From Woeseiaceae bacterium (GTDB taxonomy: Bacteria > Pseudomonadota > Gammaproteobacteria > Steroidobacterales > Woeseiaceae), in assembly GCA_021773135.1 (NCBI GenBank), contig JAJFKP010000017.1, positions 50,520-114,519 on the forward strand: DNA of 64,000 nt. Reading direction: 5' to 3'. How positions within the stretch are numbered: the first letter of the stretch is position 1; every line of letters starts with the position of its first letter. The notes beneath the pieces were generated by a model. It saw nothing but the letters and a program-made list of their open reading frames with translations. It was not told the origin of the DNA and ran no database searches. Shown here piece after piece: positions 3,808 through 29,327 of this stretch. Position numbers and translations under genes: made by a program.

Positions 3808-4401
3808 ATGCGCGATAAAACAGAAGACAACAGTCAGCAAACCGATAGTTTCACGGTATCTGCTGTATACCAGCAGATTGCAATAGAGCAGGCCCCGCAG
3901 GAACTGGACAGCAAAATCTTGCGAGCGGCGACCATTGAGGCGCGCGGTAGCGGCAACCGAACACTGTGGTGGCTGCGACCGGCGGCGCTGGCCGCAACGT
4001 TGGCACTAAGCGTTGCCCTGGTGCTGCAAGTCGCGGATACAGGTGCGACGAAATCCATTCCCCGCGAGCTGGGATCGCCGACAGCTGCGCCGCAAAACGA
4101 GAATGTGTTCGATGCCGCGGCGGCGGCTGGCATGGAACGAATCAGGGAAGCTGAAGCAGCAGCCCGTGCAAACCCGGGCCCAACGGACCCGCCGACTGCA
4201 CCCGTCAATCGGGTTGGGCCTGATCCCGCTCTGAACAGATCCACGATCGACTACCAGGGTTGCAGTGCAGAGCAGAAGTCGTCGTCGGTTAGCTGGTGGC
4301 AGTGTATCCAGTCGCTAGAAAAGCGCGGCTTGACCGACCTGGCCAGGAGTGAACTCGAGGCACTTTTTGCGGCCAACCCGGGATTCGACGTACCCAATTA
4401 G
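3808..4401 (+). CDS. Putative anti-sigma factor (single-pass membrane protein)
   Basis: Starts 2 nt after the sigma stop. Short cytoplasmic N-terminus, one TM (WWLRPAALAATLALSVALVLQV), Ala/Pro-rich periplasmic part. No HxxxCxxC zinc motif. Confidence 0.55.
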   Translation: MRDKTEDNSQQTDSFTVSAVYQQIAIEQAPQELDSKILRAATIEARGSGNRTLWWLRPAALAATLALSVALVLQVADTGATKSIPRELGSPTAAPQNENVFDAAAAAGMERIREAEAAARANPGPTDPPTAPVNRVGPDPALNRSTIDYQGCSAEQKSSSVSWWQCIQSLEKRGLTDLARSELEALFAANPGFDVPN

Positions 4402-10034: not shown

Positions 10035-11507
10035 ATGGATAAAAAAAGCATAGGAATCAGTGGTTTGGCTGCTTACACGCCTCCGTTTCGAGTCTGGCTC
10101 GAGGACTGGTGTGACTGGACTGGCAACCAATGGCCAAAGATTCGCGAGGTTGTTGGTCGTAGTTTCCGGGTCCGGGGACGGAATCAGAGCGTATATACGA
10201 TGGCGGCGACGGCCGTCATACGACTGATCGATCAATACGACATTGACCCTGCCCGCGTAAAATTTCTCGGGCTTGGCACCGAATCGAGCACCGATAATTC
10301 AGCTGGTGCGATTATTGTAAAAGGAATGGTCGACCAGGCACTGGTTGCTAAGGGCAAACAGCCGATTGCTCGCAGCTGTGAAGTTCCCGAGTTCAAGCAC
10401 GCCTGTCTCGGCGGTGTCTATGGCATGAAAAACGCGATCCGGCACCTGGCGCTCGATGGCGCTGGCGGTCAGGCTATTGTTGTCTGTGCTGACATTGCAG
10501 AATATGCCCGCGGATCGAGCGGTGAACCCACCCAGGGTGCCGGCGCCGTTGCGATGCTGCTGGAAGAGAATCCCAAACTCGTGGAAGTAGACCTGGTGCA
10601 ATCTGGCTCGGCGTCTGACTACCGCATTATGGACTTCCGCAAACCAATGATGCGATTTTGCGGGCAGGACCGGAGCGAGGGCCACCAGGTTCAGGACTTT
10701 CCCGTTTTTAACGGTAAATACTCGACCACGTGTTACATCGACGAAACCATACATGCATTGAATGACATGTATGAAAAGCGGGGATTGAAAGCTTCCGAAT
10801 ACCTGCGCTCGCTAAAAACTGTATTCATGCATCGACCGTATCGGCGCATGCCGGAAACCGGATGGGCAGTCGCCTACCTGTTTGCACTGGGAAACGGGTC
10901 TCCTGAAGATCGCGCCGAGTTGGCATCGTTCTGCTATGAAGCAGGTGTCGAGCCGGAGGCGTTGTTGGCGGAAATGAGCAGCAAACCTGAAATTGCGTTG
11001 CTCGCCGATCCCGAACGGCTTAACTACGAAGCGTACCCGCTCACCATGGCGGTATTCCGGATATTTCGAGCATCACGCCGCTATCGTCGCGAAATCCTCG
11101 ACAAGCTGGCGCTGGGCAGCGACACAATGCTGGATCTCGGCAACCTGTATACAGCCGCTTTGCCGGCGTGGATCGCAGCAGGGTTTGAACAGGCGGCAGA
11201 CGAAAATCTCGATATGGCAGGTGAAGAACTTCTGACCCTGGGGTATGGCAGCGGAGATGCCGCCGAGGTCATTCCTTTCATTGTCGCCGATAGCTGGCGC
11301 GAGGCAACCGCGGCTATCAGGTTCGGCCAGTCCATGGAATTTGCGGTCGATATCAATGAGGCGCAGTACGATGCGCTGCATGGTGGCAGGCGCCCGCCCA
11401 ATCTCGACTACCTGCCAAGTAACGAGTTCGTCATAGACAAGGTAGGCCGCACTGACGAACGCCAGTTCCAGGACCTCGGAATCGAGTACTACAAATACGT
11501 CAGCTAG
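10035..11507 (+). CDS. mvaS: Hydroxymethylglutaryl-CoA synthase
   Basis: GLGTESSTDNS (catalytic Glu), KHACLGGVYG (catalytic Cys), FMHRPY (His) and GNLYTAALP motifs of HMGS. 490 aa. Confidence 0.85.
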   Translation: MDKKSIGISGLAAYTPPFRVWLEDWCDWTGNQWPKIREVVGRSFRVRGRNQSVYTMAATAVIRLIDQYDIDPARVKFLGLGTESSTDNSAGAIIVKGMVDQALVAKGKQPIARSCEVPEFKHACLGGVYGMKNAIRHLALDGAGGQAIVVCADIAEYARGSSGEPTQGAGAVAMLLEENPKLVEVDLVQSGSASDYRIMDFRKPMMRFCGQDRSEGHQVQDFPVFNGKYSTTCYIDETIHALNDMYEKRGLKASEYLRSLKTVFMHRPYRRMPETGWAVAYLFALGNGSPEDRAELASFCYEAGVEPEALLAEMSSKPEIALLADPERLNYEAYPLTMAVFRIFRASRRYRREILDKLALGSDTMLDLGNLYTAALPAWIAAGFEQAADENLDMAGEELLTLGYGSGDAAEVIPFIVADSWREATAAIRFGQSMEFAVDINEAQYDALHGGRRPPNLDYLPSNEFVIDKVGRTDERQFQDLGIEYYKYVS

Positions 11508-11615
11508 ACCCTAGGCAGAGTCTCGACGGTCTGCAGAATCCACCGAGCGATGCCACATCACGCCGGCACTTGTGGATGATCCCTCGCTATTCCCTGTTGG
11601 CAAAACCGCCCTCGT

Positions 11616-11639
11616 GGAATGTACATATTCTGACATTCC
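11616..11639. promoter_or_regulatory. Inverted repeat GGAATGT-N10-ACATTCC upstream of the cytochrome gene
   Basis: Read directly. It ends 60 nt upstream of ATG 11699. The binding factor is unknown. Confidence 0.3.
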
Positions 11640-11698
11640 GGTGCGCTTGCTATCGTCTCTACTCCCGTGCGCGTTTTGGCAATTTTCGGAGAAACGAT

Positions 11699-12232
11699 AT
11701 GACTGGCAGAGAAAGGAGCGTGGTTGGAACGGCGATCGTTATGGCGATGCTCTCAATGGGGCTTTACGGCGTGAGTTTCGCGGCCGAGCCTACCAGGACC
11801 GAGCGCGAGTTTATTGAAATGCAAACGAGTATCAATGCGACGATGGTCGCCGTTGTTGACTGGGCCGCACATGAAATCTGGGAAGCTGGCTATGCAGAGA
11901 CGATGACCGGCCGCAATTGGCTAACGACCAAGCAATTTGCCATTCAGCTACTGGCATCCGGCACTCTGGTATCACTCGGCGGCAACGGCAAGGCGGATAT
12001 GGGTTGGGCTAATAACGCCGAATGGCAAACATGGTCAGCCAAAATGATCCAGGAAACCGAACGAGCACTGGTTGCCATCGACGCAAAGGACCAGGCTGCG
12101 CTGAAAGAATCCGGGGAAAGGCTGGTCGACACCTGTGAGGGCTGCCACGACGCCTTCAAACCGGACATTCCCACAGAAGGAATACTGCACGTTCCTCATC
12201 ATGAGTACGGAGAGCCGCTCATCACTGAGTAG
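11699..12232 (+). CDS. Class II cytochrome c (cytochrome c'/c556-like), exported
   Basis: GGAGA RBS 7 nt before the ATG, signal-like N-terminus (AIVMAMLSMGLYGVSFAAEP) and a single C-terminal CEGCH heme site, as in four-helix-bundle class II cytochromes. Confidence 0.7.
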   Translation: MTGRERSVVGTAIVMAMLSMGLYGVSFAAEPTRTEREFIEMQTSINATMVAVVDWAAHEIWEAGYAETMTGRNWLTTKQFAIQLLASGTLVSLGGNGKADMGWANNAEWQTWSAKMIQETERALVAIDAKDQAALKESGERLVDTCEGCHDAFKPDIPTEGILHVPHHEYGEPLITE

Positions 12233-12604
12233 GCATAGCGAAATGCTTGCAAGACCGATGCAGGCCCTGCCAATTCCTCCACTGCCGGTCAGGTTGACCA
12301 GTCTGCACCTGCAGGCCGTATCCAGCTCCTCTATTGGCGGTCAGCGTTGTCAGCCATGACCGGCGGGCCGCGGTTTTCAGCGGACTTGTAAGCGCGAGCC
12401 ACAAGCGGCTTTGTTGTAGCCTATTTGGACGAAATGCGCCTGCATTTAACGATTTACCCCCTGGTTGTCCATAACCAACATCCAGTAGTGGCTATAGATA
12501 TCTGAAAATAATTCAGTTTCCGGTTTTTGCCGCACCCAGGCTTCCGAGTCCCGCTCGATTTCGATTTTTTTGCAGTAGAATGGCCGCTCGCAACGGGGAT
12601 ATCG

Positions 12605-14383
12605 ATGCACGTACAAGAAAACAGCAAGGCCGGTTTGTCACAAACGGCACCACTTCCTAAAAGAGGCGACCCGGCTTTTACAGCAGAACCGGTTGCAATG
12701 ACCTCTCACTCGCTTGCGCCAGTTTCGCGGGACGCGGGAGCGCACCTGATTGGTGACATCGTCGGCAATCGTTATGTACTGCAGACGCGGGTCGGTCCCG
12801 GCCGTCTGGGCGTCGTTTACGAGGCGACGGATCAACAGCTAATGCAGGCAAGCCGCAGCGATTACCGCGTCACCATAGAATTGTTTTGTTTGCCGAGCGA
12901 ACAAGCTCACCTGCGGACACGTTTCGCCAGCGAGTTTGTGGACCTGCTCTCTTTATCTCATCCCAATATCGTAAGAATTTTAGATTTTGGAATCGATGGC
13001 GAAACGATCTTTTTTACCACCGAGTTGATGGAAGGTACTTCGCTTAACTCGATGCTCGACGCTGACTCGACCGATTCGTTTTCAGACAAAGAGATTCTGG
13101 CGGTACTTCGTAACGTTTCAGACGCGCTGCAATATGCGCACGCCAAAGGTTTCATTCACGGCGGAATCAGTTCGGATTCAATATTTATAACGACTGACTA
13201 TGAAGTAAAGATTTCGGACCTTGCCATTGAGGTATTGAAACGGACTCTCGGCAATCCTGACGACCAACTCGCGGCCAGTTCGCAACAGGCGCTCAAACCG
13301 ACTGCAGATGTGTTCGGAATCGCGGCGGTTGCTTACGAACTTCTGGCAAGCGTTGCACCTTATGAAGGACTGCCCCGCGGCCACGCGCGCAAGCGCGGAT
13401 TGCGGCTGCGACGAATTAAAGGCATTGCGCGTCACCGGTGGAAGGCACTCGTAAGCGCCCTTCAACTCCGGCCGGTCGATCGGACGCAGACGGTATCGCA
13501 ATTCGCCACAGACTTCGGTATTACCGGAACGGAATCTCTGCAGACCATTGAAGCAGGTGAAAAAGCGAAAGAGCGACGCTTGTTCTTGCCGGCTTTGCTG
13601 CTGGTTACCGTTGCGGCAGCGGTTTCGTTGGCGCAATTCGGTGTTTGGAATCCCGCCGAAGTTCTGTCAGACGTTCGAGAGCGGATTAGCGCCGGTGTAC
13701 CAACAGCCGTTACCGATAATGAACTTGTTGCGGAAACAATTACCGCAGAAGACCTTGCTGCAGGCGACGCTGTCATCGTCGACAACCAGCTCGACGAGGT
13801 CCTGCTGCAAACGACGCCCGATCCGTCAAGTGAGCCAGCAGGCGCCGAATCCGGCCCGGTTGAGGTCCCAATGGCTGATGCCGCCGTGCCTGCCGATCCA
13901 GGCTTTGTGGCGCAGGAGCCTGCGGCCCTCAATGAAACCCCGCTTCGGGAGGCGGCAAGCAGCGTCAGCGAACTCGCTGTCGCTGATACGACCGGAACGA
14001 TCGCGGTAGTGGCTGAAGCGCCGATTGCCGCACCGATAGCTGTGCCTCCCGCAATTGCTTTTGCCGAGGAAGCCGTGGTCGTGCGCGAAGGCCAGGATAT
14101 GGCCTCAGTTGTTCTGCAGCGTGTTGGCGACGCCGAGACCGAAATGCCGATATTTTGGTGGACCGGTGACAACACTGCGATCGCTGATCTCGACTATGCA
14201 GATCTTGGCGTTCGATCCGAGACTTTCGCGGCAGGCGTTGAATTCATTTCACTGTACGTGCCGTTAATTTCGGATTCGCGGGCCGAACAAAGAGAATCAT
14301 TCTATGTCTTTGTGGCGTCAGATCTCGAGCCAGAAACTGTTAGTGACCGCATTGAAGTTATCGTCAACGACGACGATCGATGA
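12605..14383 (+). CDS. Membrane-anchored Ser/Thr protein kinase-like protein (predicted pseudokinase) with C-terminal Calx-beta domain
   Basis: Kinase fold motifs GPGRLGVVY, SHPNIVRILDF and DVFGIAAVAYELL, but VTIE replaces VAIK and HGGISSDS replaces HRDLKPxN. One TM (LFLPALLLVTVAAAVSLAQFGVW), an Ala/Pro/Glu linker, and a Calx-beta-like end (EGQDMASVVLQRVGDAETEMPIFWWTGDNTAIADLDYAD...ESFYVFV). The start is uncertain; the ORF is open from 12527. Confidence 0.7.
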   Translation: MHVQENSKAGLSQTAPLPKRGDPAFTAEPVAMTSHSLAPVSRDAGAHLIGDIVGNRYVLQTRVGPGRLGVVYEATDQQLMQASRSDYRVTIELFCLPSEQAHLRTRFASEFVDLLSLSHPNIVRILDFGIDGETIFFTTELMEGTSLNSMLDADSTDSFSDKEILAVLRNVSDALQYAHAKGFIHGGISSDSIFITTDYEVKISDLAIEVLKRTLGNPDDQLAASSQQALKPTADVFGIAAVAYELLASVAPYEGLPRGHARKRGLRLRRIKGIARHRWKALVSALQLRPVDRTQTVSQFATDFGITGTESLQTIEAGEKAKERRLFLPALLLVTVAAAVSLAQFGVWNPAEVLSDVRERISAGVPTAVTDNELVAETITAEDLAAGDAVIVDNQLDEVLLQTTPDPSSEPAGAESGPVEVPMADAAVPADPGFVAQEPAALNETPLREAASSVSELAVADTTGTIAVVAEAPIAAPIAVPPAIAFAEEAVVVREGQDMASVVLQRVGDAETEMPIFWWTGDNTAIADLDYADLGVRSETFAAGVEFISLYVPLISDSRAEQRESFYVFVASDLEPETVSDRIEVIVNDDDR

Positions 14384-14483
14384 AGCGGCGCTTTTTGCCA
14401 CTTTAATCCAATCCTCCCGCGACGGAGAAACGTGCCTCAGCGACCGGTGAGGATTGATCTTTAGTCCACGGCTGAAAAGCAAC

Positions 14484-15062
14484 TCAGACTGGGCTCGTAT
14501 ACCGGGCCAAAGTATCCGAAAACTCGGAGTTTAATCGTTCCCATTCCAGCTTAAACCAAGGCGTAAAAACATCAGGCGTCTCCGCTAACTCCCGATCAAG
14601 CTCCCTCGCACTCAAGTATCTCAACGCCTCGATCTCTGTTTCGTTTGCCTGCGGGTCTTCCGCCAGCGACCCAAGGAACACGTGACAAAATTCGTTTTCC
14701 GCACCCAGCGCACCGAAAGTTGCCTGATAGGTAAAGCGATAGACGAACTCCAGATCAGCTTGCGTTTGTAGTTCATCACTGAGGCGACGGCTTGTGGCTA
14801 CCTCGATTGATTCACCCTGTCGGGGATGACTGCAACAGCTGTTGGACCAGAAACCCGGCCACAGTCTTTTTCCCTGTGCGCGTTGCTGTAGCAGAAGTTC
14901 ACCGCTGCGGTTGAACAAAAAAACCGAAAACGCACGATGCAAAACGCCATCGCCATCGTGGCACGCTGCTTTGCTCATCGTTCCTGACTGGTTGTCATTC
15001 TCGTCGACGAGAATAAGAAGCTCGTCTTCCGAAGATACAATTTTTGCTGATTCCTGTGACAC
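14484..15062 (-). CDS. idi: Isopentenyl-diphosphate delta-isomerase, type 1 (Nudix)
   Basis: HRAFSVFLFN, LLLQQRAQGKRLWPGFWSNSCCSHP, ENEFCHVF. Starts 10 nt after the upstream gene. Confidence 0.9.
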   Translation of the reverse strand: MSQESAKIVSSEDELLILVDENDNQSGTMSKAACHDGDGVLHRAFSVFLFNRSGELLLQQRAQGKRLWPGFWSNSCCSHPRQGESIEVATSRRLSDELQTQADLEFVYRFTYQATFGALGAENEFCHVFLGSLAEDPQANETEIEALRYLSARELDRELAETPDVFTPWFKLEWERLNSEFSDTLARYTSPV

Positions 15063-15072
15063 CTGGTTCCCG

Positions 15073-17295
15073 TTAAATCCGAATTTGAATTATTGTGTAT
15101 CCCGCGTTGACCAAAGCGCAAGACACAGCATCCGTTTTCCCCGGGCAGAGCGCTATGATCGACCCGCCACCGCCGGCGCCTGTCAGTTTTGCGCCAACTG
15201 CCCCGGCAGAGCGCGCGATGCCTGTCATTTGTTCGAGATCCGGAGACGAGACGCCGATTGCACTCAGTAAACCGTGACACACGTTCATCAACTCACCCAG
15301 CCGCCCGTAGTCTGACGCCTCGAGTGCTTCGACACCAGCCAACGCGACTTCATCAATGCTATTGAATATGCCCGTATACAGCGCCTTGTTATTTTCGTAT
15401 CGTCCGCGGACGCCGCTGACCAAAGACTTCGTATTTCCTCGGGTATGACTTGCGGCAACGACCAAAGGTAACGGCTCATCGAGATGTACGACGGTCGGAC
15501 CCGAAGCGTTACCCTTGCGGAACAGAATCGGTTTGGCGAATGTCGCGACATGATTGTCGATGCCTGATGGCGTTCCGTGGGTTATGGTCTCGCACTTCAG
15601 CGCCAGTTCGTTCACGTCGGCGTTTGTCAGGGACATTTTGATGAACTTTGCCGCAGCGCGTATCACAGCAACCGCAAAAGCCGCTGATGAGCCGAGACCC
15701 ATGCCCAGCGGAATACGGGCATTGACCGTTAGGTCGATGTCACGCGTGGTGCAGCCCAATTCTCTGAGAATCAGGTCGACGATGGCTGCTGCGCCGTCCA
15801 GACCAGTACTCCCTGCGCTCCATTGCTGCTGGATTCCCCAATCTGCGATAGCCAGTCGCACCCCATGCTGACCCTCCTCAATGTCGGCAGCCACAGCCCG
15901 ATCGATGGGTATCGCAAGCGCATGTCGGTCGTGAACGACCGCGTGCTCTCCAAACAAAATTACTTTGCCTGCCGCGGCATCGTCACGATCGCGTAGCAAC
16001 TGAGGCACGGTGCTGCTGGCATGAACGACTTTGAGTTCCTTGGCCTTGCGGATCTTTATTTCACCTGACTCAATCATTGCATCGACGACATCGGTGAAAA
16101 TTTCGTCAGGTATACCTGCTGATGCCGCAACACTGCGGGCGTGTAATCGCATATGGCCTTTTTGAATGCCGCTGGATACAAGCGCTTTGAGTGCCGCAAA
16201 GTTTTGCGCCAGACCGACCGCACCCATCAGTTCGGCAAGCTCGGTTGAACTCGTTACCCCGCTGATCGCTAGCCCAAGCGAGGCGCCAGGATTTGATTGC
16301 AGTGACCCGCCGACAATGCCGGGCTTCAGCGGCAGCTTAAGCTCACCGCACAGATCACCAGCGTCTCCGACAAACCAGTCAGTCAGCGCTCGATAGCGGC
16401 CTTTTGTTGCCGCATACGCATGCGCGCCGGCCTCGATAGCCCGCCAGTCGTTCCCTGTAGCAATCGCCACGGCGTCGATGCCATTCATAATGCCTTTATT
16501 GTGTGTCGCCGCCCGATACGGGTCCGCAAGCGCGAACCGGTTGGCCCTGACGATCCCGTCGCGAATTGCCAGAGCAGTATCGGCATTGGCATCCAGCGCG
16601 GAAAGCGGGACATTCCCGCGGGCGATGACCAGTGACGCATCGGCAAGGTTTGAGAGGATACGCAGCCCGACTCGGCCGCCGGCGACGCGCTCGATCTCGG
16701 GGCCCAGGGCCTCACAAAGTGTATTGACAACGTTCGCGCCCATCGCGTCGCGCGTATCGACATGCAAATGCACCACGACGATTGGCTCACCACCTTCCAG
16801 TTCGTGCTGTAAAAACTCGATGCCCCTGACGCCACCACCTCGCGCAACCAGGCTTGGCTGGAGTTTGTTCGCGAACTCGATAAGCGCTGACTTTGCTGTC
16901 TCCAGGCGCTGGATATATTGATCCGGAGCGGCCACATCCGACACCTGTATTTGTCCGATCAGCACGGGCTCACTGCCGGTGACAGTGAATCCACCGCTGT
17001 CGCGAAACAGCTTTGCGGCACCGCTCACGCCGGCCACAATCGATGGCTCCTCTACCACCATTGGTACAAGATAGTCCTGTCCGTTCACCAGGAAGTTGGG
17101 TGCAACGCCCAAGGGCAATCCAAATACGCCGACTACGTTCTCGATCATGTGGTCAGCGTTTCTTACCGGCAGCAAAGGCTGTCCGCCAGACAGCATCGCC
17201 GACATTTTCGAGTCAAGGTAACCGCGTTCCCGCAGTACCTCTATGCGCTCGCTAATCGATTTGCGATACAGCCCACTGATTCGCGAGTCGCTCAT
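15073..17295 (-). CDS. Bifunctional class II HMG-CoA reductase (aa 1 to about 423) / mevalonate kinase (aa about 442 to 740)
   Basis: HMGR motifs EEPSIVAG, DAMGANVVN, GIVGGS, GHMRLHARS. A linker (ASSTVPQLLRDRDDAA) is followed by GHMP-kinase motifs GKVILFGEHAVVH, PLGMGLGSSAAFAVA, TPSGIDN, KLTGAGGGGS, all in one uninterrupted frame. Confidence 0.85.
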   Translation of the reverse strand: MSDSRISGLYRKSISERIEVLRERGYLDSKMSAMLSGGQPLLPVRNADHMIENVVGVFGLPLGVAPNFLVNGQDYLVPMVVEEPSIVAGVSGAAKLFRDSGGFTVTGSEPVLIGQIQVSDVAAPDQYIQRLETAKSALIEFANKLQPSLVARGGGVRGIEFLQHELEGGEPIVVVHLHVDTRDAMGANVVNTLCEALGPEIERVAGGRVGLRILSNLADASLVIARGNVPLSALDANADTALAIRDGIVRANRFALADPYRAATHNKGIMNGIDAVAIATGNDWRAIEAGAHAYAATKGRYRALTDWFVGDAGDLCGELKLPLKPGIVGGSLQSNPGASLGLAISGVTSSTELAELMGAVGLAQNFAALKALVSSGIQKGHMRLHARSVAASAGIPDEIFTDVVDAMIESGEIKIRKAKELKVVHASSTVPQLLRDRDDAAAGKVILFGEHAVVHDRHALAIPIDRAVAADIEEGQHGVRLAIADWGIQQQWSAGSTGLDGAAAIVDLILRELGCTTRDIDLTVNARIPLGMGLGSSAAFAVAVIRAAAKFIKMSLTNADVNELALKCETITHGTPSGIDNHVATFAKPILFRKGNASGPTVVHLDEPLPLVVAASHTRGNTKSLVSGVRGRYENNKALYTGIFNSIDEVALAGVEALEASDYGRLGELMNVCHGLLSAIGVSSPDLEQMTGIARSAGAVGAKLTGAGGGGSIIALCPGKTDAVSCALVNAGYTIIQIRI

Positions 17296-18299
17296 CGCTG
17301 CTCCCTGCCGGATACTTTCACGCCGTTCAGGTCCAGTTCGACCGGCAATTCGACAAAGCCGTGCTCGCCAGCGGCTTCACAAAAACTCGAAATTGAATTG
17401 CTGTTGGTGCCCAATACGATGCCGATATCTCCGCCGCCGGATCCACATGGCTTGTACACGACATCACGGCCATAAGCCAAGCGGTAAATTTCATTGTGAC
17501 CGCCAGCGAAAATTCCGAGTGCCTGTGCAGCGCTGAACCGATGCAGTGTTGCTGTGTAGGCCCGTATCGATTCAACCATCCCGGCGGCGTCGGCTCCGGC
17601 CCACTTAACGGCAACGTTTTCCGCCGCTGCAATGAATGGAAGCCAATTTCGATCAGTCGGGCTGCCGGTGTCCAGCCGCCTGAGATGGGAGGGTGTATCA
17701 GCGGAATGGCCACTCCAGATGACACGATACAATAAATTGTCGGGCCAGGAATGATGCGCTGCCACAACGTTTTCATGCATGCGGTATTCAATCACGCCGC
17801 CGTTGAGACTGGTCGCAATATCAATCCCGCTGCCTAGTCCGCGCTGCAAACTCGCATGTGCCTGGTAGGCGAGTGCACCAGGTTCCGCTGTCTGCTCACA
17901 ACACTGGCATAACGCAACCACCAGGGCGGTCGTTGCGGCAGCACTGGAGCCGAGCCCGAATTTCTGGCCTGATTCCTGATCAGTGAATGCTGTCGTATCC
18001 ACACTGATTGCCAGTGGGTCAGGATCACCGTTGACTGCGCTGGTCCATGCGGCCTCTATCAGTTCCAATTCGGGGTGGCGGTCCTGCCACTCGAGCTTGC
18101 CATCTGCACTCACCCGGAAGCGCCACTCTCCGTCTGCGTAACCGGGTGTTCGCACGATGTGAAACTCGTCTTTCGCTGCCTCGATTCGTACGATTGCCCG
18201 GCTGTCTAATGCCATTGATATTGCAGGCGCGCCAACCAAAACCGCGTATTCGCCGGCTACAATGGCCTTGCCCGGCGCCGAGACCATAATGGGGCTCAT
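17292..18299 (-). CDS. mvaK2: Phosphomevalonate kinase (GHMP family)
   Basis: SAPGKAIVAGEYAVL start motif and GLGSSAAATTALV. ATG 18299 overlaps the decarboxylase stop (ATGA), and its stop overlaps the HMGR-MK start. The longer ORF to 18566 is read as spurious. Confidence 0.8.
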   Translation of the reverse strand: MSPIMVSAPGKAIVAGEYAVLVGAPAISMALDSRAIVRIEAAKDEFHIVRTPGYADGEWRFRVSADGKLEWQDRHPELELIEAAWTSAVNGDPDPLAISVDTTAFTDQESGQKFGLGSSAAATTALVVALCQCCEQTAEPGALAYQAHASLQRGLGSGIDIATSLNGGVIEYRMHENVVAAHHSWPDNLLYRVIWSGHSADTPSHLRRLDTGSPTDRNWLPFIAAAENVAVKWAGADAAGMVESIRAYTATLHRFSAAQALGIFAGGHNEIYRLAYGRDVVYKPCGSGGGDIGIVLGTNSNSISSFCEAAGEHGFVELPVELDLNGVKVSGREQR

Positions 18300-19258
18300 G
18301 TTGACCGCAGCAACCTTGCACCAGCGCCAAGTTTGCTGTGCATCAGGTCCTGCACGCCGGGCGTCTGTCGCAGCGCCGCCATAACGACATCGACAGAATC
18401 TGGGAGACAGATTGCTTTGACCTGAGGGCCGGCATCCATCGTGAAGAAGACAGCATGCCCCTGGTCCTGCAGCGTGCGAATGGCCTCCAGGCAGGACAGC
18501 GTGGCACTGTTCCAATAGACGATAGGCGGCTTTGAACTCCACATGACTGAATGCATTTTCAGGCAATTGTGTTCTGCAACCTCTGCAAGGCTGTTGAAGT
18601 CTTGTCGCAGCACTGCCGCTCTCGCTACCTCCAGGTCTTCGTCCTGCCGAGCCAGCCAGCTTGAATAAAAGGGAGATGTTTTCTCACCCCGTACCATTGC
18701 CTCACCGGACCCCACCGGCTTTTTCCCTTTCTCCGTTACCGCAACGACAACTTCGAGTGGCCATGGCTGGCTTTGCAGTAGTGGCTGCACCGAAATCTGT
18801 TCCTCGCCCGCAGTCAACTCAACGATGCCACCGTAAAGCGAGCGTGCGGCGGACCCGGAGCAGGCGCCGGCAAGTCGCGCAAGTGTCTGCGTATCAATCG
18901 TTGTTCGTGAAGACGCGGCGGCCGCGACAACGAGTGCCGCAAAGGCAGACGACGACGACGCAAGTCCGGCGCCTATCGGGAAATTGACTTCGCTAATGAC
19001 TTCCGCGGCCGCGCGCTTCGAACCGACGACAAGGTCCAGGCAGGCGCTCACCCGATCCAGCATTCCAGGTGCAGGGGCATCGTTGACACGCAGCGTGTCG
19101 CGGCCCGGGCGATCGCAAAACTCTACCGACATCGTTGTGCGCAGACTGTCCAGTGTTAAGGAGAAAGAGCTGACTGCGGGCAGATTCGCCTCATGGTCAC
19201 GTTTTCCCCAGTACTTGATCAGCGCGATATTAGGTTGTGCCTGTGCTACGGCTTTCAT
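18296..19258 (-). CDS. mvaD: Diphosphomevalonate decarboxylase
   Basis: NIALIKYWGKRD, FPIGAGLASSSSAFAALV, TMDAGPQV motifs. 320 aa. Confidence 0.9.
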   Translation of the reverse strand: MKAVAQAQPNIALIKYWGKRDHEANLPAVSSFSLTLDSLRTTMSVEFCDRPGRDTLRVNDAPAPGMLDRVSACLDLVVGSKRAAAEVISEVNFPIGAGLASSSSAFAALVVAAAASSRTTIDTQTLARLAGACSGSAARSLYGGIVELTAGEEQISVQPLLQSQPWPLEVVVAVTEKGKKPVGSGEAMVRGEKTSPFYSSWLARQDEDLEVARAAVLRQDFNSLAEVAEHNCLKMHSVMWSSKPPIVYWNSATLSCLEAIRTLQDQGHAVFFTMDAGPQVKAICLPDSVDVVMAALRQTPGVQDLMHSKLGAGARLLRST

Positions 19259-19374
19259 ATTTATGCGGCTTCTTGCCTGGCGCGATCAACGCTGAATATC
19301 TGGAGCCGGATTATAGCGCCGGAGCGCATCCAAAGCAGGATTCGTGTACGCTTGTCGCGATGACAGGAGTGTGC

Positions 19375-20277
19375 ATGATTGAGTCGGACAGTGAAGATTT
19401 CGTCCGAAGAATGGGTACCTACACGGATCGCACGGAGCGCTGCCTGGATCGTGTACTGCGGCCAGCCGACAAGGTGCCAGCGAGGCTTCATGAAGCGATG
19501 CGTTACGCTGTTCTCAACGGCGGCAAGCGCATTCGACCTTTACTGGTCTATGCTGCGGGAGCCTGTCTCGGCGTCGCGCCGGAAAAACTGGACGTTCCGG
19601 CTACAGCAATCGAACTCCTGCACGCCTTTTCGCTGGTGCATGACGATCTTCCCGCAATGGACGATGACGATCTGCGTCGTGGCCAGCCAACTGTGCATCG
19701 AAAATTCGACGAGGCCACGGCGATACTGGCAGCCGATGCGCTGCAGCCACTGGCTTTTCATACGATAGCAGCGGCGGTGGCGCTCGACGATACGGAAAGC
19801 CGGCAACTCACAAAGCTGATAGCAGATGCCTGCGGCTCGCGCGGCATGACTGGCGGACAGGCGATTGATCTCGCCTCGGAAGGCAAGAACCTTTCCATTG
19901 ACGAACTTACTGAAATGCACGGCCTCAAGACCGGCGCGCTGATTCGTGCCGCCGCCATGTCACCGTGCTACCTCGCGGGCGACCTCTGCGAGAGTTACTG
20001 GACGGCAATGGACGGTTTTTCCCGCGACATTGGCTTAGCCTTCCAGATTCGCGACGATATTCTGGACGTAACCGGTCAAACCGATGTCATCGGCAAACCG
20101 GCTGGATCAGATCAGAGTATGAACAAGGCAACGTGGCCGGCGATATTTGGCATGGACGAGAGCGTCCGTCGTTGCGACGAGCTGCTCGCCGCGTCTATGC
20201 AACACCTCGATACCTTTGGACTGCAGGCCGAACCGCTGCGACTGCTTGCCCATTTTATTGTTTCACGGCGCCGCTGA
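19375..20277 (+). CDS. ispA: (2E,6E)-farnesyl diphosphate synthase
   Basis: GGKRIRPLL, FARM LVHDDLPAMDDDDLRRG, SARM FQIRDDILD. ATG 19375 has AGGAG 7 nt upstream. Confidence 0.9.
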   Translation: MIESDSEDFVRRMGTYTDRTERCLDRVLRPADKVPARLHEAMRYAVLNGGKRIRPLLVYAAGACLGVAPEKLDVPATAIELLHAFSLVHDDLPAMDDDDLRRGQPTVHRKFDEATAILAADALQPLAFHTIAAAVALDDTESRQLTKLIADACGSRGMTGGQAIDLASEGKNLSIDELTEMHGLKTGALIRAAAMSPCYLAGDLCESYWTAMDGFSRDIGLAFQIRDDILDVTGQTDVIGKPAGSDQSMNKATWPAIFGMDESVRRCDELLAASMQHLDTFGLQAEPLRLLAHFIVSRRR

Positions 20278-23827: not shown

Positions 23828-24508
23828 TCAGCTTTGCTGCTGAATAATAGTGTCTCCAGCCGGATCGATGAGATCCGTTGATTCGTTGCGGGCGTTGTTG
23901 ACCTTTCGGTCCACCGGCCAGGTACGAAATGCAGGTGCGTCCGCTGTGACTTCTTCCAGCAATTCTGTGTCACCATCCAGCCAGCGCTTTGCGTTTTCAG
24001 GCTGCAGCACCACAGGCATGCGATGGTGTACCTGCGCAAGAAAATCGTTGGCAGCCGCAGTTACTATAGTGGTTGTTTGCAATGACTCGTCTGAGTCCTT
24101 GCTGTCCCAATGCTCCCATAGTCCGGCGAATGCGAACGGCGTTCCATCAGCCAGCGAAATGAAGTACGGGATCTTGATATCGCCCTCACGATGCCACTCG
24201 TAAAAGCCGTCCGCGAGGATCAGACAACGGCGCTTTCGATACGCGTTCCGGAAGGACGGTTTTTCCGCAACAGTTTCGGAGCGGGCGTTGATCATTCGAT
24301 TTCCGATGGACGGGTCCTTGGCCCAGAACGGAACCAATCCCCAGCGCAGCATGGTTAGCTCGGGCGATTGGTTTTCATCCCTGCGAATTGCGGCAATGTA
24401 CTGTGTCGGCGCAATGTTATAGCGGGGCTTCACGTCGATCGATTGGGCCACGCCGAATAACGCGGCGACTGCTTCGCTGGGGGAATAGAAGGCGAATCGT
24501 CCGCACAT
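23828..24508 (-). CDS. yedK: SOS response-associated peptidase (SRAP/YedK family, abasic-site processing)
   Basis: MCGRF N-terminus with catalytic Cys2, NIAPTQ, LRWGLVPFWAKD, YEW motif. 226 aa. Confidence 0.9.
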   Translation of the reverse strand: MCGRFAFYSPSEAVAALFGVAQSIDVKPRYNIAPTQYIAAIRRDENQSPELTMLRWGLVPFWAKDPSIGNRMINARSETVAEKPSFRNAYRKRRCLILADGFYEWHREGDIKIPYFISLADGTPFAFAGLWEHWDSKDSDESLQTTTIVTAAANDFLAQVHHRMPVVLQPENAKRWLDGDTELLEEVTADAPAFRTWPVDRKVNNARNESTDLIDPAGDTIIQQQS

Positions 24509-24509
24509 A

Positions 24510-25283
24510 CTATTCCCGAATCCCGATGCCGCGATTCAGCAGGAACAAATTCAGTGAAAACAGGCCGACGACGAAAACACCGACCAGGAGGTAGGCATAC
24601 TCTATGCTGATATCGGAAACGCCAAGGATGCCGTAACGAAACGCATTGACCATGTAGAGAATCGGGTTTCCCAATGAAATATTCTGCCAAAATTCGGGCA
24701 GCATGGAAATCGAATAGAAAACGCCGCCAAGGTAGGTCAGCGGCGTAAGCACAAACGTAGGGATGATTGAGATATCGTCGAATTTCTTGGCAAATACGGC
24801 GTTCACAAAACCTAGCAAGGCGAAGACGACCGATGCGAGTATGACCATTGAGAAAGTAATCAGCGGATGTGCCACGGTCAGGTTAGTGAAGAACAATGCA
24901 ATCGCTGTGACCATGGCGCCGACGAACAGCCCCCGCACCACGCCGCCGGCAACGTGCCCCAGAATGATGGTCGCATTGGACAACGGCGCTACTACCATTT
25001 CCTCGACGTGCTTACCGAATTTGGCGCCGAAGAATGACGACACAACGTTGCCATAGGAATTCGTGATTACCGACATCATGATGAGTCCTGGCGCGATGTA
25101 CTGCATATAGTCAAAGCCGTCCATCTCGCCGATGCGTCGCCCAATCAGGTTGCCAAAGATAATAAAGTACAAAGTCATGGTTATTGCGGGCGGCACAATC
25201 GTCTGAATCCAGATGCGGACAACCCGGATGAATTCCTTTCTTACGATTGTTTTGAAACCGATCCAGTTGACTCTGAAATTCAT
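24510..25283 (-). CDS. yadH: ABC-2 family transporter permease (YadH-like)
   Basis: Six hydrophobic segments. Follows the YadG-like ATPase after 16 nt. ATG 25283 (MNFRVNW) is chosen over the overlapping upstream start at 25328. Confidence 0.75.
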   Translation of the reverse strand: MNFRVNWIGFKTIVRKEFIRVVRIWIQTIVPPAITMTLYFIIFGNLIGRRIGEMDGFDYMQYIAPGLIMMSVITNSYGNVVSSFFGAKFGKHVEEMVVAPLSNATIILGHVAGGVVRGLFVGAMVTAIALFFTNLTVAHPLITFSMVILASVVFALLGFVNAVFAKKFDDISIIPTFVLTPLTYLGGVFYSISMLPEFWQNISLGNPILYMVNAFRYGILGVSDISIEYAYLLVGVFVVGLFSLNLFLLNRGIGIRE

Positions 25284-25299
25284 TTTGCTGGATTTCCTG

Positions 25300-26226
25300 T
25301 TAGCCGGTTGCGGACTGCTTGTTTTCAACCAGGCCCATGAAAAGCTCTTCCAGCCGGTTTGCCTTGTTACGCAGACTGAGAACCGTGATGCCGGAATCGC
25401 TAAGCGTGCCGAAAAGTGTATTGAGATTAGTGCCGGCCGTTACGGCGACCTCGAGTTCACACGAGTCGCGCAGGTTGGTTTCGAATCCGGGCAGGTTCGG
25501 CGCTGACTCCAGTGGATCGCGCACACTCAACACGAAGACCTCGCGTTGCAGCTTGCGTAGAACTGTGCTCATTGGTGCGTCTTCGATAATCTTGCCCTCG
25601 TCGATGATCGCGACATGCCGACACAGGCTCTCCGCCTCCTCCAGGTAATGCGTCGTCAGAATGATCGTAGTGCCTGCTTCGTTGGTGCGGCGCAGGAAAT
25701 CCCACATCGATCTGCGAATCTCTATATCGACGCCGGCCGTCGGCTCGTCAAGGATCAGCAGGCGAGGTTCGTGAATCAAAGCGCGGGCAATCATGAGCCT
25801 GCGCTTCATACCACCGGAGAGGTTGCGCGCGATTTCTGATCGTTTGTCCCATAGCCGTAGCTCGCCGAGATAGGTCTCGGCTCGCTGCAGCGCGAGCCCT
25901 CGTTCAATGCCGTAGTACCCGGCCTGGTTGACGACGATGTTCAGCACCGAGTCAAACGTGTTCATATTTAGTTCCTGCGGCACCAGGCCGATGCAGGACT
26001 TGGCGGTTTCCAGATCAGTATCGATATCATGACCGAAAATCTCGACCCTGCCGGAGGTCTTGTTCACCAGCGAAGATATGATACCTATGGCCGTCGTCTT
26101 ACCGGCGCCATTCGGCCCGAGCAGCGCGTAGAAATCGCCGGACTCGACGCTGAGATCGATTCCCTTTAATGCCTGGACACCGTTTGAGTACGTTTTCGTC
26201 AGGTCTTTAATGGTTAGGGCATGCAT
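25300..26226 (-). CDS. yadG: ABC transporter ATP-binding protein (YadG-like)
   Basis: GDFYALLGPNGAGKTTAIGIISSLVNKTSGRV, LSGGMKRRLMIARAL, LLILDEPTAGVD, NKANRLEELF. 308 aa from ATG 26226. The 380-aa ORF extension would overlap the upstream gene. Confidence 0.85.
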   Translation of the reverse strand: MHALTIKDLTKTYSNGVQALKGIDLSVESGDFYALLGPNGAGKTTAIGIISSLVNKTSGRVEIFGHDIDTDLETAKSCIGLVPQELNMNTFDSVLNIVVNQAGYYGIERGLALQRAETYLGELRLWDKRSEIARNLSGGMKRRLMIARALIHEPRLLILDEPTAGVDIEIRRSMWDFLRRTNEAGTTIILTTHYLEEAESLCRHVAIIDEGKIIEDAPMSTVLRKLQREVFVLSVRDPLESAPNLPGFETNLRDSCELEVAVTAGTNLNTLFGTLSDSGITVLSLRNKANRLEELFMGLVENKQSATG

Positions 26227-26252: not shown

Positions 26253-26924
26253 CTAGTTCTGTGTTGTTTCGTTTGACCTGGCAATTCGCTGCTGGGGCAC
26301 GGCAATTGACCGCGCGGCCAGCGTGAATTTGTCCTGCGTGACATCGGTAGCCTGCGTAAGGATTGATTGCAGTGCCGCCATTTGTGCCGCGTGACATGAC
26401 AGCAGTTGTCGACTGACACCACTGCCTAGTAGTTTTCGCCACAGGTCGGTGTGGCGGCCCAAGCGTGCGACGGGAGGTTCTCCGGTCGCCCTGACTGCGT
26501 CGAGTAATTCGAAAAACGTCAGCTCTGCAATGCGCTCACTCCAATACAGCGTGGCACCGCATATCACCCTTAACGCGTAGGGGTTTCTGCGCGCAAGTTG
26601 CCAGATGAAGCCGAGCGCGGCCGAAATTAAAGTATCAGCATCTTCCGTTGACCTTATGTCAAAAAGCCCGGCGCCTGGACGTTCCGCCAGAGTCTGTGTC
26701 CAGTAGGCCTCATCAGTTTCGCGAAACGAAAATAGCAGAAACGGTGTCTTTGCGAGGCGAGCGATCTGGCTGCTGCTCAGGCTGGTCATGCGTTTGCAGA
26801 GATCAACAGGCATGCCGTCAAGCCCGCGTTGCAAAGCCGCATCGCGCGGTGTCAGTTCAAGCCAGGCTTGATTCAGTGTCAGAACATTTTCGTAGTCAGT
26901 GGCATCAGGGCCGTTAAATCCCAT
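26253..26924 (-). CDS. Hypothetical regulator with two FlhD-like repeats
   Basis: Strong RBS GGGAGG. aa about 10-65 (LNQAWLELTPRDAALQRGLDGMPVDLCKRMTSLSSSQIARLAKTPFLLFSFRE) resemble E. coli FlhD (LSYLLLAQRL...[28 protein letters not shown]). A second similar block is at about aa 105-160 (FIWQLARRNPYALRVICGATLYWSERIAELTFFELLDAVRATGEPPVARL). The similarity was judged by eye only. Confidence 0.45.
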   Translation of the reverse strand: MGFNGPDATDYENVLTLNQAWLELTPRDAALQRGLDGMPVDLCKRMTSLSSSQIARLAKTPFLLFSFRETDEAYWTQTLAERPGAGLFDIRSTEDADTLISAALGFIWQLARRNPYALRVICGATLYWSERIAELTFFELLDAVRATGEPPVARLGRHTDLWRKLLGSGVSRQLLSCHAAQMAALQSILTQATDVTQDKFTLAARSIAVPQQRIARSNETTQN

Positions 26925-27067
26925 GGTTTTCCTCCCGTTTTCGCGATTTTTCGCTTGTTATTAGGGAAAATGGTCAAATTTGGTATTGTTGTTTGATTTC
27001 CCATTTATGGATGATATAGGCTCTTTAAATACTATATATGGTTATTAACTAGCATAAAAGGAAAGAA

Positions 27068-27628
27068 ATGAGGCTTACGGACAACCGCTATGCGAGCGAA
27101 AAACAACAATTCGAGCTCGCCCTGAGAATGATTCAACACGAGGCCCGAACCCGAACCATCCGCGAATGCACGGGCCTGAGTGACGACCGGATCCGCAAGG
27201 TATATACAACCTATTTCCGGGATGCAGGCGACTGCGGCGTAAAACGCCGGCGGGGCAAATCACCGCGCCAGATAACCCTGTTCGTGAAAACGCCGCAGAA
27301 TCAGCTGGAGGCAACCACGCTGATCGCCCTGTATTGCGCCAGCCTGCTACTGCGGGTCGATGCCAGTAACAACGTTCACTCCTGCTGGCCAAGGCCTGAC
27401 GTGGAGTTCGGCCATCGGGTTTGTCGCGCTTACGAGACCTATCTGCTACTGCACCCTGAACCATCGCTGAGTTTCGAATGGGCCTGGAACCTATTGCAAA
27501 GCATTAGCAGAAACGATGAGCTGTATCTCGCTGCTTGCAGAAGCTGTCGCAGCCGTTATGTGCAGGATGCGTACGCCCTGGACCGACGGATCTGTCCCAG
27601 CTGCGAAATAGCAGATAAACCCGGCTGA
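27068..27628 (+). CDS. FlhC-family transcriptional activator-like protein
   Basis: 186 aa. Collinear with E. coli FlhC: [31 protein letters not shown] vs [39 protein letters not shown] vs [17 protein letters not shown] vs RAWTLVRFV. C-terminal Cys4 site CRSC-x15-CPSC. Confidence 0.7.
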   Translation: [186 protein letters not shown]

Positions 27629-27664
27629 TCCAGGGCGGCAAAGTTTCGCTACACTGTGGCGGCC

Positions 27665-28552
27665 ATGAATAATCAAAACGTATTTGCCGGCGCATTCGTC
27701 GACAGGTCGGGCCATCGTCGCGAGGACTCAGACTGGCTGAGTACCGCCATTAACGGATCCGATTCCAGGTTCCTGCCGGTCTGGCAAAACAAATGCCTGA
27801 CATTTGGGGAATCGCCACGAATCAGTCTCCTCGAACGAGCCGACGTGGCGGAACACATCGTGGAAGATGAAACGATATTTTTGGGGCTGTACGAGGACAG
27901 GCCCGCTTTCGCCCTGCCGATGGCGGATTCGGTGGATGCCCCAATTGATGCAGAGGAACGATTTCATGACCTGCGTTACCTTGGCAGCGTGCTACCGGCC
28001 GACGAATCCAACCTGGCTGCCCATGCAATCGCGTTGATCAACTGGCACCGGCTACATCGGTTTTGCACAATCTGTGGCTCATCAACCCGCACTGAATCGG
28101 GTGGTAACACGCGCATTTGTGAAAACCAAACATGCGTGAATCGAGTTTTTCCCCGCGTAGATCCGGCCATCATTGTACTGGTTTCCCGTCGCGACCGGTG
28201 CCTGCTTGGACGCCAGTCATCATGGCCAGAGGGACGATTTTCAACGATCGCAGGTTTCGTTGAGCCGGGCGAAAGCCTCGAAGATGCGGTGCGGCGAGAA
28301 GTACTCGAAGAAACAAACATTCGCGTTGGCAGCGTGCATTATCACAGCTCGCAGCCGTGGCCTTTTCCGTCGTCCCTGATGCTTGGCTTCACCGCGAGCG
28401 CTGAGTCCGAAGACATTCAACTGAACGATGGCGAACTCGAAGACGCACGGTGGTTTAGCCGCAAGGAACTTCGGTCCGGTTTCCCAAAATTGCCATACCG
28501 CCTTTCCATTGCGCGACGCCTGGTCGACAACTGGCTTACCGATGGTACGTAG
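27665..28552 (+). CDS. nudC: NAD+ diphosphatase / NADH pyrophosphatase (Nudix, RNA NAD-decapping)
   Basis: Zinc ribbon CTICGSSTRTESGGNTRICENQTC and Nudix box GFVEPGESLEDAVRREVLEETNI, then SQPWPFPSSLM. A GTG at 27656 is an alternative start. Confidence 0.9.
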   Translation: MNNQNVFAGAFVDRSGHRREDSDWLSTAINGSDSRFLPVWQNKCLTFGESPRISLLERADVAEHIVEDETIFLGLYEDRPAFALPMADSVDAPIDAEERFHDLRYLGSVLPADESNLAAHAIALINWHRLHRFCTICGSSTRTESGGNTRICENQTCVNRVFPRVDPAIIVLVSRRDRCLLGRQSSWPEGRFSTIAGFVEPGESLEDAVRREVLEETNIRVGSVHYHSSQPWPFPSSLMLGFTASAESEDIQLNDGELEDARWFSRKELRSGFPKLPYRLSIARRLVDNWLTDGT

Positions 28553-28568
28553 TGATTAGCGTACGCCG

Positions 28569-29327
28569 ATGTGCCTGATCCTCTTTGCCTGGAAAATCGA
28601 TCCGGATTACCCCCTGGTGCTGGTAGCGAACCGCGACGAGTTTCATCAGCGCCCGACGCAGTCGCTGCACAGGTGGCCGGATAAACCGGACGTTATAGCG
28701 GGACGTGACCTGCAGGCGGGTGGCACGTGGTTGGGCGTCGGTCCGTCAGGAAAACTTGCCGCTGTCACCAACTACCGGGAAGAAAAGCCAAAGCGAACAG
28801 GCAAACATTCGCGCGGTGAGCTTGTTACGGATTTTCTCCTGGGTTCCGAAACACCGCAAGAATTCTCAAGTTCGATCGATTGCGCACGCTACGCGGGCTT
28901 TAGTCTTCTGACGTCAGATGCGGATGAAATTTGCTACCTTTCAAATCGGGGTGATGCGGTAACGCGACTGTCGCCCGGAATCTATGGCCTCAGTAACGCA
29001 TCGCTCGACACGCCATGGCCAAAGCTCTTAAGAACGCGAGAAGCGTTCCGCAATATCGTAACGACAGGCGATGCGAATGAAACGACGCTCATGCGACTAT
29101 TGGCCGACCGGCAAATGTCATCGGCAGCTGCGATTGAGCAGGGCGCCCTTCCTTTTGCGCTTGCGCGTGCGATCACTGCGCCGTTTATCGTTACACCGGA
29201 GTACGGTACGCGGTGCACGACCGTGGTATTGCGCAATTCAGCAGGTCAGACCAGCATCAGCGAACGTAGCTACGACGCAAGCGGAACACCAGTCGGTGAA
29301 GCACGCCTGTCAATCTCGGCGAACTGA
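28569..29327 (+). CDS. NRDE family protein (TANGO2/DUF833-like)
   Basis: MCLILFAW start, LVANRDEF (NRDE motif), GGTWLGV. Confidence 0.85.
   Translation: MCLILFAWKIDPDYPLVLVANRDEFHQRPTQSLHRWPDKPDVIAGRDLQAGGTWLGVGPSGKLAAVTNYREEKPKRTGKHSRGELVTDFLLGSETPQEFSSSIDCARYAGFSLLTSDADEICYLSNRGDAVTRLSPGIYGLSNASLDTPWPKLLRTREAFRNIVTTGDANETTLMRLLADRQMSSAAAIEQGALPFALARAITAPFIVTPEYGTRCTTVVLRNSAGQTSISERSYDASGTPVGEARLSISAN

Follow-up and report, generated by a model that had tools for sequence, protein, structure and literature searches.

A chromosomal FlhC/FlhD-type gene pair of Woeseiaceae and a putative NrdR-type operator in its shared promoter region

What does an FlhDC-type gene pair do on a stretch of chromosome that carries neither flagellar nor conjugation genes, and what controls it? 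FlhD4C2 is the flagellar master regulator of enterobacteria, and the question is raised by a 64-kb stretch of a Woeseiaceae genome (contig JAJFKP010000017.1, positions 50,520 to 114,519; hereafter the window, meaning this whole stretch). Two open reading frames (ORFs) of interest face away from each other in it, one on the minus strand (26253–26924) coding for a 223-amino-acid (aa) protein, D, and one on the plus strand (27068–27628) coding for a 186-aa protein, C. A first-pass annotation, made from the sequence without database searches, had described them as a pair resembling FlhD and FlhC. Woeseiaceae belong to the Gammaproteobacteria and are among the most abundant bacteria of marine sediments; Woeseia oceani is in culture, and to our knowledge almost nothing is known about gene regulation in the family. 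From the comparisons presented here, we hold it rather likely that the pair is a Woeseiaceae-specific, chromosomal and vertically inherited heteromeric transcription factor of the FlhD/FlhC type, putatively gated by NrdR. The most interesting new element of the locus would be a predicted NrdR-type operator in the promoter region that the two genes share.

The C and D proteins

The loci used for comparison were the best 80 of 153 that were obtained when species-representative genomes were searched for the 186-aa C protein, and nearly all of them come from Woeseiaceae or Woeseia metagenome-assembled genomes (MAGs), with C identities of 70–92%. In 78 of these 80 species-level loci D and C are adjacent and divergently oriented, and in the other two the contig ends before D, which means that the two genes co-occur in every complete locus.

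The C protein matched the Pfam family FlhC (PF05280) with 35 bits (E = 1.5 × 10−8), above the gathering cut-off of 27 bits that applies to both FlhC and FlhD (PF05247), with residues 10–181 placed on positions 8–162 of the 173-position profile. A profile of 33 orthologues matched the solved FlhC chains 8j56_C (E = 2.3 × 10−7) and 2avu_E (E = 1.4 × 10−3), with N-terminal and C-terminal segments in collinear order, bearing out the proposal that C follows FlhC along its whole length. The C-terminal Cys4 zinc site that had been read from the sequence was also recovered: the arrangement C157-x2-C160-x15-C176-x2-C179, encoded at 27536–27604 (+), aligns with the CxxC pairs of both FlhC chains, and all four cysteines are invariant among the 81 sequences over which cysteines and invariant columns were counted. 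At the level of sequence, C thus belongs in full length to the FlhC family, and its Cys4 zinc-ribbon site is intact. The PF05280 tag is already attached to C in public databases, and some sources name it 'FlhC family transcriptional regulator'. Across the 80 loci (L001–L080) C is the most conserved gene of its 12-kb neighbourhood, exceeding nudC, the ABC transporter genes and the SRAP gene, and equalling or exceeding polA. The only match to the PHROG families was a weak full-length one of C (E = 5 × 10−5) to PHROG 19079, a phage family without assigned function, so FlhC-like proteins also occur in phage genomes. A PADLOC search gave no match for the pair.

The D protein has diverged much further. 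Its identity to orthologues ranges from 29 to 88% and is about 35% for most of them, which places it among the least conserved proteins of the neighbourhood, and invariant columns across the family amount to 2.7% in D versus 38% in C. Even so, a profile of 71 aligned D orthologues matched FlhD chains only when searched against the PDB (8j56_A, E = 2.5 × 10−4; 5hxg_B, 2.3 × 10−3; 1g8e_A, 8.6 × 10−3), the match running over profile positions 11–90 against FlhD 13–96. Moreover, 41 of the 71 orthologues, searched as whole proteins, matched PF05247 at E values up to 1, the best at 1.1 × 10−6. An AlphaFold2 model of D built on 49 database homologues was confident, with a predicted local distance difference test score (pLDDT) of 82.5 and a predicted TM-score of 0.78. 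A Foldseek search of the PDB with this whole model returned nothing at E ≤ 10−3; ranked by target-normalised TM-score, only FlhD chains were good matches (4es4_B, 0.70, with a root-mean-square deviation of 3.1 Å over 76 columns; 1g8e_B, 0.67), and these would lie on the N-terminal domain of the model. Because the profile matches are to FlhD alone, orthologues match the Pfam family and the TM-scores agree, the N-terminal FlhD domain of D (residues 1–90, 26655–26924 on the minus strand) is real.

D is not of single-domain FlhD size (about 105–120 aa), its 223 residues forming two folded domains and a tail. The tail (residues 194–223, 26253–26345 on the minus strand) is predicted to be disordered (pLDDT < 50) and is poorly conserved in the alignment, an AAAC motif being the exception. 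Between the two lies an extra, well-predicted helical domain (residues 91–195, 26340–26654 on the minus strand) that is possibly a degenerate second FlhD repeat. The first-pass annotation had seen two consecutive FlhD-like blocks in D and proposed a fused tandem FlhD. The first block is supported by the profile match described above. For the second, the helix and strand order of the N-terminal domain recurs in the AlphaFold2 model, and alignment of the two halves of D by hhalign over 70 columns (P = 0.0029, probability 11%) reproduced the register proposed earlier; a profile of the C-terminal half matched only FlhD 8j56_A in the PDB, over its full length, at E = 0.18. A Pfam scan of the C-terminal half gave no match, and in the independent structural test, a Foldseek search with the isolated C-terminal domain model (pLDDT 74), FlhD was not among the matches. 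These data lend weak support to a second, degenerate FlhD repeat that packs against the first one, and the term 'tandem FlhD' describes a possible but unproven architecture.

All members of the family share the two-domain build of D. Exhaustive searching with a profile retrieved 598 clusters at 50% identity, at least 145 of them at E ≤ 10−30, and the 150 matches listed were mostly full-length proteins of 200–250 aa, with some shortened ones. Nor are enlarged D subunits unprecedented, since AcaD of IncC plasmids has a mass of 22.8 kDa, against 13 kDa for FlhD (PMC4207636); that of D is about 25 kDa.

The shared control region

Ribosome-binding sites for both genes, which had been called strong in the first-pass annotation, can be read in the sequence as GGAGG at 26931–26935 on the minus strand for D and AAGGAA at 27058–27063 for C. 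They lie within a shared divergent control region of 143 bp (26925–27067), whose GC content is 32%, against about 55% for the genome. This intergenic DNA is strongly conserved across the orthologous loci although D itself is poorly conserved. Its core is a block of fixed geometry, consisting of GACCATrTATGGAT, 18 nt and ACTATATATGGTC, which covers 45 bp in the window (26999–27043), ends 24 nt before the start codon of C, and recurs in 53 of 66 intergenic regions that have both arm motifs.

The operator of NrdR has been defined as two partially palindromic boxes of 16 bp, separated by a linker of 15–16 bp and conserved at C4, A6, A8, T9, T11 and G13 (PMC13584703). In the window, box 1 (TTCCCATTTATGGATG, 26998–27013, +) has five of these six key positions (C4, A6, T9, T11 and G13), and box 2 (ATACTATATATGGTTA, 27029–27044, +), which ends 23 nt before the C start, has all six, so that the element carries 11 of the 12 key bases, A8 of box 1 being the one that is missing. 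A linker of 15 bp separates the boxes here and in 78 of 79 intergenic regions, and among 53 aligned loci at least five of the six key positions were found in 45 for box 1 and in all 53 for box 2. Scanning the whole window for the two-box pattern gave a single match (27001–27041, one mismatch), with about 0.17 expected by chance. Among the 79 orthologous intergenic regions the best score was at least 10 of 12 in 53 and at least 11 of 12 in 33, whereas the other ~850 kb of the orthologous loci held just two sites with 11 or more. As a positive control, known operators of E. coli were run through the same script and scored 11 (nrdA), 12 (nrdH) and 12 (nrdD) of 12, all with 15-bp linkers. A third box lies exactly 20 bp upstream of box 1 in 25 of the 53 loci.

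In its bases and spacing, the intergenic element agrees with the NrdR operator as it has been defined, and it overlaps the predicted promoter of C. We infer on good grounds that NrdR would control the pair. The gene downstream of the element is the one for the FlhC-like C protein and not an operon for ribonucleotide reductase (RNR), and the Pfam scan of the window found no gene for RNR. Because NrdR is treated as RNR-specific, a conserved pair of its boxes ahead of a gene for a transcription factor would be unusual; the single-box case of topA in Pseudomonas has been questioned (PMC12051234, PMC4409342).

No consensus promoter of the sigma-70 type was found by scanning the control region. Other promoter classes upstream of C were considered and rejected. 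A candidate sigma-54 site, TGGTC-N6-CTAGCA, was discarded because the G of its −12 GC is T in many orthologues, as read by eye, and it was further ruled out by the implied start site, which would remove the Shine-Dalgarno sequence. Readings of the same DNA as sigma-28 or sigma-32 promoters failed on inspection by eye.

A scan of metagenomic sequences with the pattern CCATRTATGGB-N18-22-CYATAYATGG gave 120 loci, of which just two belonged to Woeseiaceae (L124 and L201); both are the same intergenic region, and the scan says nothing on a regulon. A separate 41-bp element, CCATATATGGGATTAACACGGCGCTTATGCACCATATATGG, recurs in ten of the metagenome loci (L099, L108, L111, L125, L148, L158, L159, L173, L197 and L199). 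It consists of two CCATATATGG palindromes 31 bp apart, a geometry resembling that of NrdR operators. In one locus (L158) the ORF just downstream of it resembles, by eye, an IS982-type transposase, and the element may be an end or an operator of an insertion sequence. On account of this adjoining ORF, the 41-bp element is probably unrelated to the element between D and C.

Genomic context and competing explanations

The pair lies within a neighbourhood of about 12 kb that is collinear across the family: ExeA-GspB comes first, SRAP, yadH, yadG and D lie next on the minus strand, and C, nudC, genes for a TANGO2-like protein and an esterase, argH and polA follow. A Pfam scan of about 50 ORFs covering all 64 kb found no flagellar, conjugation, relaxase or integrase gene, in agreement with the first-pass annotation, the rest being housekeeping or metabolic genes. 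The window likewise contains no tRNA genes, no Rfam matches and no GC anomaly or compositional island. When 72,556 plasmids were searched by tblastn (E ≤ 0.01), D had no match, and C had nine weak FlhC matches with 22–30% identity, on Burkholderiales plasmids, none of them of the IncC or SXT type. The pair belongs to the chromosome and is passed on vertically; it is not the remnant of a mobile element. Family-profile matches, a conserved Cys4 site and co-occurrence of the two genes, the three points on which the first-pass annotation had said its proposal would stand or fall, were all found. Its observation of a non-mobile FlhC/FlhD-type pair was largely correct, and its interpretation was partly supported, since the FlhDC-type pair is confirmed and the proposed rewiring to neighbouring genes is not supported.

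On the minus strand D is followed by genes for a yadG-like ABC ATPase, a yadH-like ABC-2 permease and an SRAP protein (23828–26226; Pfam ABC_tran, ABC2_membrane and SRAP). The D stop and the yadG start are 26 nt apart in the window, and the gap is short in nearly all loci, with a median of about 36 nt; no terminator was found between the two genes. As the gap is short and conserved and no terminator interrupts it, D probably heads a D-yadG-yadH-SRAP transcript. On the plus strand C is followed, after 27 nt in the window, by genes for a nudC-like NADH pyrophosphatase and a TANGO2/NRDE-family protein (27656–29327; Pfam NUDIX, NUDIX-like and TANGO2). The C-nudC gap is below about 135 nt in some 47 loci and 430–630 nt in about 25, with few intermediate values and four inserts of 3.5–4.9 kb. 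By eye, a small ORF in one of the loci with a 430–630 nt gap (L035, 6618–6998) reads as mscL, and ORFs in one of the four inserts of more than 3.5 kb (L021, 6900–11320) read in the same way as a peptidase C39-type bacteriocin ABC exporter and an HlyD-like protein. Given the variable gap and these unrelated insertions, the C-nudC junction is an insertion hotspot across Woeseiaceae and is not functionally fixed.

Scans of the 64-kb window and of 863 kb of orthologous loci with a position weight matrix (PWM) of the intergenic motif found no further copies near the neighbouring genes. A motif-like sequence inside yadH, GATaCTsTATATGGTC, lies about 140 bp upstream of SRAP (window 24640–24660, minus strand), with counterparts at equivalent positions in L001, L005, L016, L033, L036, L059 and L060. 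These PWM matches were rejected as regulatory sites and taken as a coding coincidence; their source is the codons for PILYMV, a conserved peptide of YadH.

Elsewhere in the window, a mevalonate-pathway gene cluster (10035–20277) was found in this gammaproteobacterium. It comprises genes for HMG-CoA synthase (10035–11507), a Nudix protein (14484–15062), an HMG-CoA reductase fused to a GHMP-kinase domain (15073–17295), a GHMP kinase (17292–18566) and diphosphomevalonate decarboxylase (18296–19258), and an ORF (19237–20277) whose translation by eye resembles farnesyl-diphosphate synthase. Inside the same region (12527–14383) lies a gene for a Ser/Thr protein kinase whose C-terminal domain is of the Calx-beta type. 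An extracytoplasmic function (ECF) sigma factor gene (3146–3805) is followed by an ORF without a Pfam match (3808–4401) that could encode an anti-sigma factor.

Several observations speak against the reading of the pair as an NrdR-gated factor of the FlhD/FlhC type. Against the NCBIfam models for the flagellar equivalogs, C scored 33.3 bits where 216 are required (FlhC, NF009365) and D 13.8 bits where 90 are required (FlhD); with 33 bits against 216, C is a member of the FlhC family but no close relative of characterised flagellar FlhC. The single D sequence reached only 18.8 bits with Pfam FlhD, below the cut-off, and only over residues 37–77. As to the operator, 16 of 100 shuffled versions of the window yielded at least one match to the two-box pattern by chance, and position 8 of box 1 is G or T instead of A. 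The conserved bases also include CC...GG, and GGAT..TATA in the linker, which lie outside the NrdR consensus and suggest that additional or different binding partners may be involved. Finally, NrdR is regarded in the literature as RNR-specific (PMC12051234, PMC4409342).

Two competing explanations concern the function of the pair and its operator. The pair could be the flagellar master regulator of Woeseiaceae, a functional FlhD4C2 acting on unlinked class II promoters as in enterobacteria and Burkholderiales, which we regard as possible though on the unlikely side. Both proteins do belong to the FlhC and FlhD families, and the lack of flagellar context says little, because flhDC of E. coli also controls unlinked operons and benthic Woeseiaceae MAGs reportedly carry flagellar genes. 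Complete flagellar assembly gene sets are reported for most of the benthic sediment MAGs, and their absence for planktonic ones (PMC12175321). On the other hand, the scores fall far short of the equivalog cut-offs, D has twice the size of FlhD, and the genes are divergent in all 78 loci with both, none of which has an flhD-flhC operon. Beyond the Enterobacterales most Gammaproteobacteria use master regulators of the FleQ type, and the intergenic motif does not resemble what we take to be the E. coli FlhD4C2 box. The occurrence of the pair in every locus, including that of a MAG from the Caspian water column at 150 m (L008), counts weakly in the same direction. The competing account of the operator is that the 45-bp inverted repeat at 26999–27043 is unrelated to NrdR and serves the pair's own autoregulation. 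Its position between the two genes, its size, which matches an FlhD4C2 footprint, and its arms GACCATrTATGG and CyATATATGGTC, some 31 bp apart at a fixed spacing in the same 53 of 66 intergenic regions, would suit such a role, as would the conserved bases beyond the six key positions, which suggest a different or additional specificity; the related activator BisDC shows positive autoregulation (PMC7423338). Yet the element has the boxes, linker and spacing expected of an NrdR operator and scores like those of E. coli, and the third box at exactly 20 bp in 25 of 53 loci speaks against autoregulation. So does the lack of a second motif copy in the window or the ~850 kb of flanking DNA, since a factor with a regulon would be expected to have more sites, although these may lie elsewhere in the genome. 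We consider this account unlikely, and somewhat more so than the flagellar one.

The two remaining explanations look to the neighbours and to the past of the pair. According to the model of the first-pass annotation, the pair would be a local regulator of the adjacent genes, namely the yadGH exporter and SRAP on one side and nudC and the TANGO2-like gene on the other. The operon-like packing in the window, with gaps of 26 and 27 nt and no convincing terminators, and the short D-yadG gap kept in nearly all loci are in its favour. However, neighbours that are co-transcribed with D and C would share the pair's promoter and would not be separate targets. Moreover, no extra motif copies were found near them, the C-nudC junction is interrupted by mscL or a bacteriocin-type exporter in many species, and adjacency carries no information on targets because gene order is kept throughout these 12 kb in the family. 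The neighbours may be carried along by the promoters of the pair; nothing marks them as its regulon, and we find the local model improbable. More improbable by far is an origin of the pair as a mobile-element activator of the AcaCD, SetCD or BisDC type that an integrated element left behind and that was domesticated. The mass of D is indeed close to that of AcaD and unlike that of FlhD, and FlhC-family proteins occur on conjugative plasmids of Burkholderiales and in phages (PHROG 19079). Against this, genes for integrases, relaxases, conjugation or tRNAs were not found in the 64 kb, nor was a GC anomaly, the plasmid matches are few, weak and limited to C, and position and synteny are identical in 78 species, so any acquisition must predate the family.

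The favoured reading and known systems

In the reading that we favour, the N-terminal domain of D would bind C as FlhD binds FlhC, and the dATP/ATP-sensing repressor NrdR would gate the production of at least C and probably of both transcripts. D, judging from the gene spacing, would head an operon that runs into the ABC-2 exporter and SRAP genes. The targets of the D/C complex would lie outside the window, and the flagellar and motility genes of benthic Woeseiaceae are the most obvious candidates. In the part of the supplementary tables of the Woeseiaceae comparative paper that was available, flhC, flhD and flagellar terms were not found, and the other papers on Woeseiales that were consulted contained no motility information. 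A wider version goes beyond this and seems to us doubtful as a whole: NrdR would have a second direct target in an FlhDC-type promoter, D would be a duplicated, pseudo-dimeric FlhD whose complex with C would differ in stoichiometry from FlhD4C2, and the dNTP or replication status of the cell would gate a motility or lifestyle programme.

The combination of a highly conserved C and a fast-evolving two-domain D makes the pair a good candidate for a global regulator of Woeseiaceae. The range of known FlhDC-type factors, which covers flagellar operons and mobile elements, would then be widened by a chromosomal version that is inherited vertically and built differently. A genuine NrdR-type operator at this place would be the first case of a conserved NrdR site with two boxes outside the genes for RNR, and through it the sensing of nucleotide pools would be connected with a master regulator.

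We compared the pair with the systems that it resembles. Like FlhD4C2 (E. coli, 2AVU; PDB 8J56), it consists of two subunits encoded by adjacent genes, with C collinear with FlhC and bearing the same Cys4 site, and with D residues 1–90 adopting, in collinear order, the FlhD fold. It differs in its very low sequence similarity, far below the equivalog cut-offs, in the divergent orientation of the Woeseiaceae genes, in the extra domain of about 100 aa in D and in the absence of flagellar genes nearby. Upstream of the enterobacterial flhDC genes there are many sites for global regulators, whereas here there are predicted NrdR-type boxes.

AcaCD of IncC plasmids and SetCD of the SXT/R391 ICEs (integrative and conjugative elements) are likewise distant FlhC/FlhD-like heteromeric activators with a non-flagellar regulon, which in our case is putative. 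They share with the Woeseiaceae pair a D subunit of about 200 aa, much larger than FlhD, and only weak matches to Pfam FlhC and FlhD. Unlike the Woeseiaceae pair, which is chromosomal, vertically inherited and surrounded by housekeeping genes, they are borne by mobile elements and activate transfer genes, and no similarity to plasmid-borne AcaC or AcaD was found by tblastn at E ≤ 0.01. BisDC of ICEclc is also a heteromeric activator with an FlhC-like C subunit, and its autoregulation is a possible model for the intergenic element. BisC, however, is a DUF2857 protein, BisD is ParB-like and without an FlhD domain, and both are encoded by a mobile element.

The best plasmid matches to C were FlhC-domain proteins of about 400 aa from Burkholderia, Paraburkholderia and Cupriavidus plasmids (for instance WP_114158321.1), annotated as 'FlhC family transcriptional regulator' and 22–30% identical to C over the FlhC domain. 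In contrast to C, they are single polypeptides with the FlhC domain as their C-terminal half and an uncharacterised N-terminal part of about 230 aa, and they are encoded on conjugative plasmids beside genes for type IV pili. In the two Paraburkholderia/Burkholderia plasmid loci L081 (4302–5489) and L082 (4341–5543), the FlhC domain covers residues 230–380, and a Pfam scan of the N-terminal 230 aa gave no match. The sequence APFLMVE...DW in these two proteins aligns weakly with PFLLFSxRExDxxxW of D, an hhalign result that is not significant (P = 0.03). These proteins could be a fusion of D and C.

With the NrdR operators of RNR promoters, the intergenic element shares the two 16-bp boxes, the 15-bp linker and the bases C4, A6, (A8), T9, T11 and G13, as well as its predicted overlap with a promoter just upstream of the gene that would be regulated. 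It departs from them in the transcription-factor gene that lies downstream, in the G or T at position 8 of box 1, in the extra conserved bases and in the third box, 20 bp upstream of box 1, that is present in about half of the loci.

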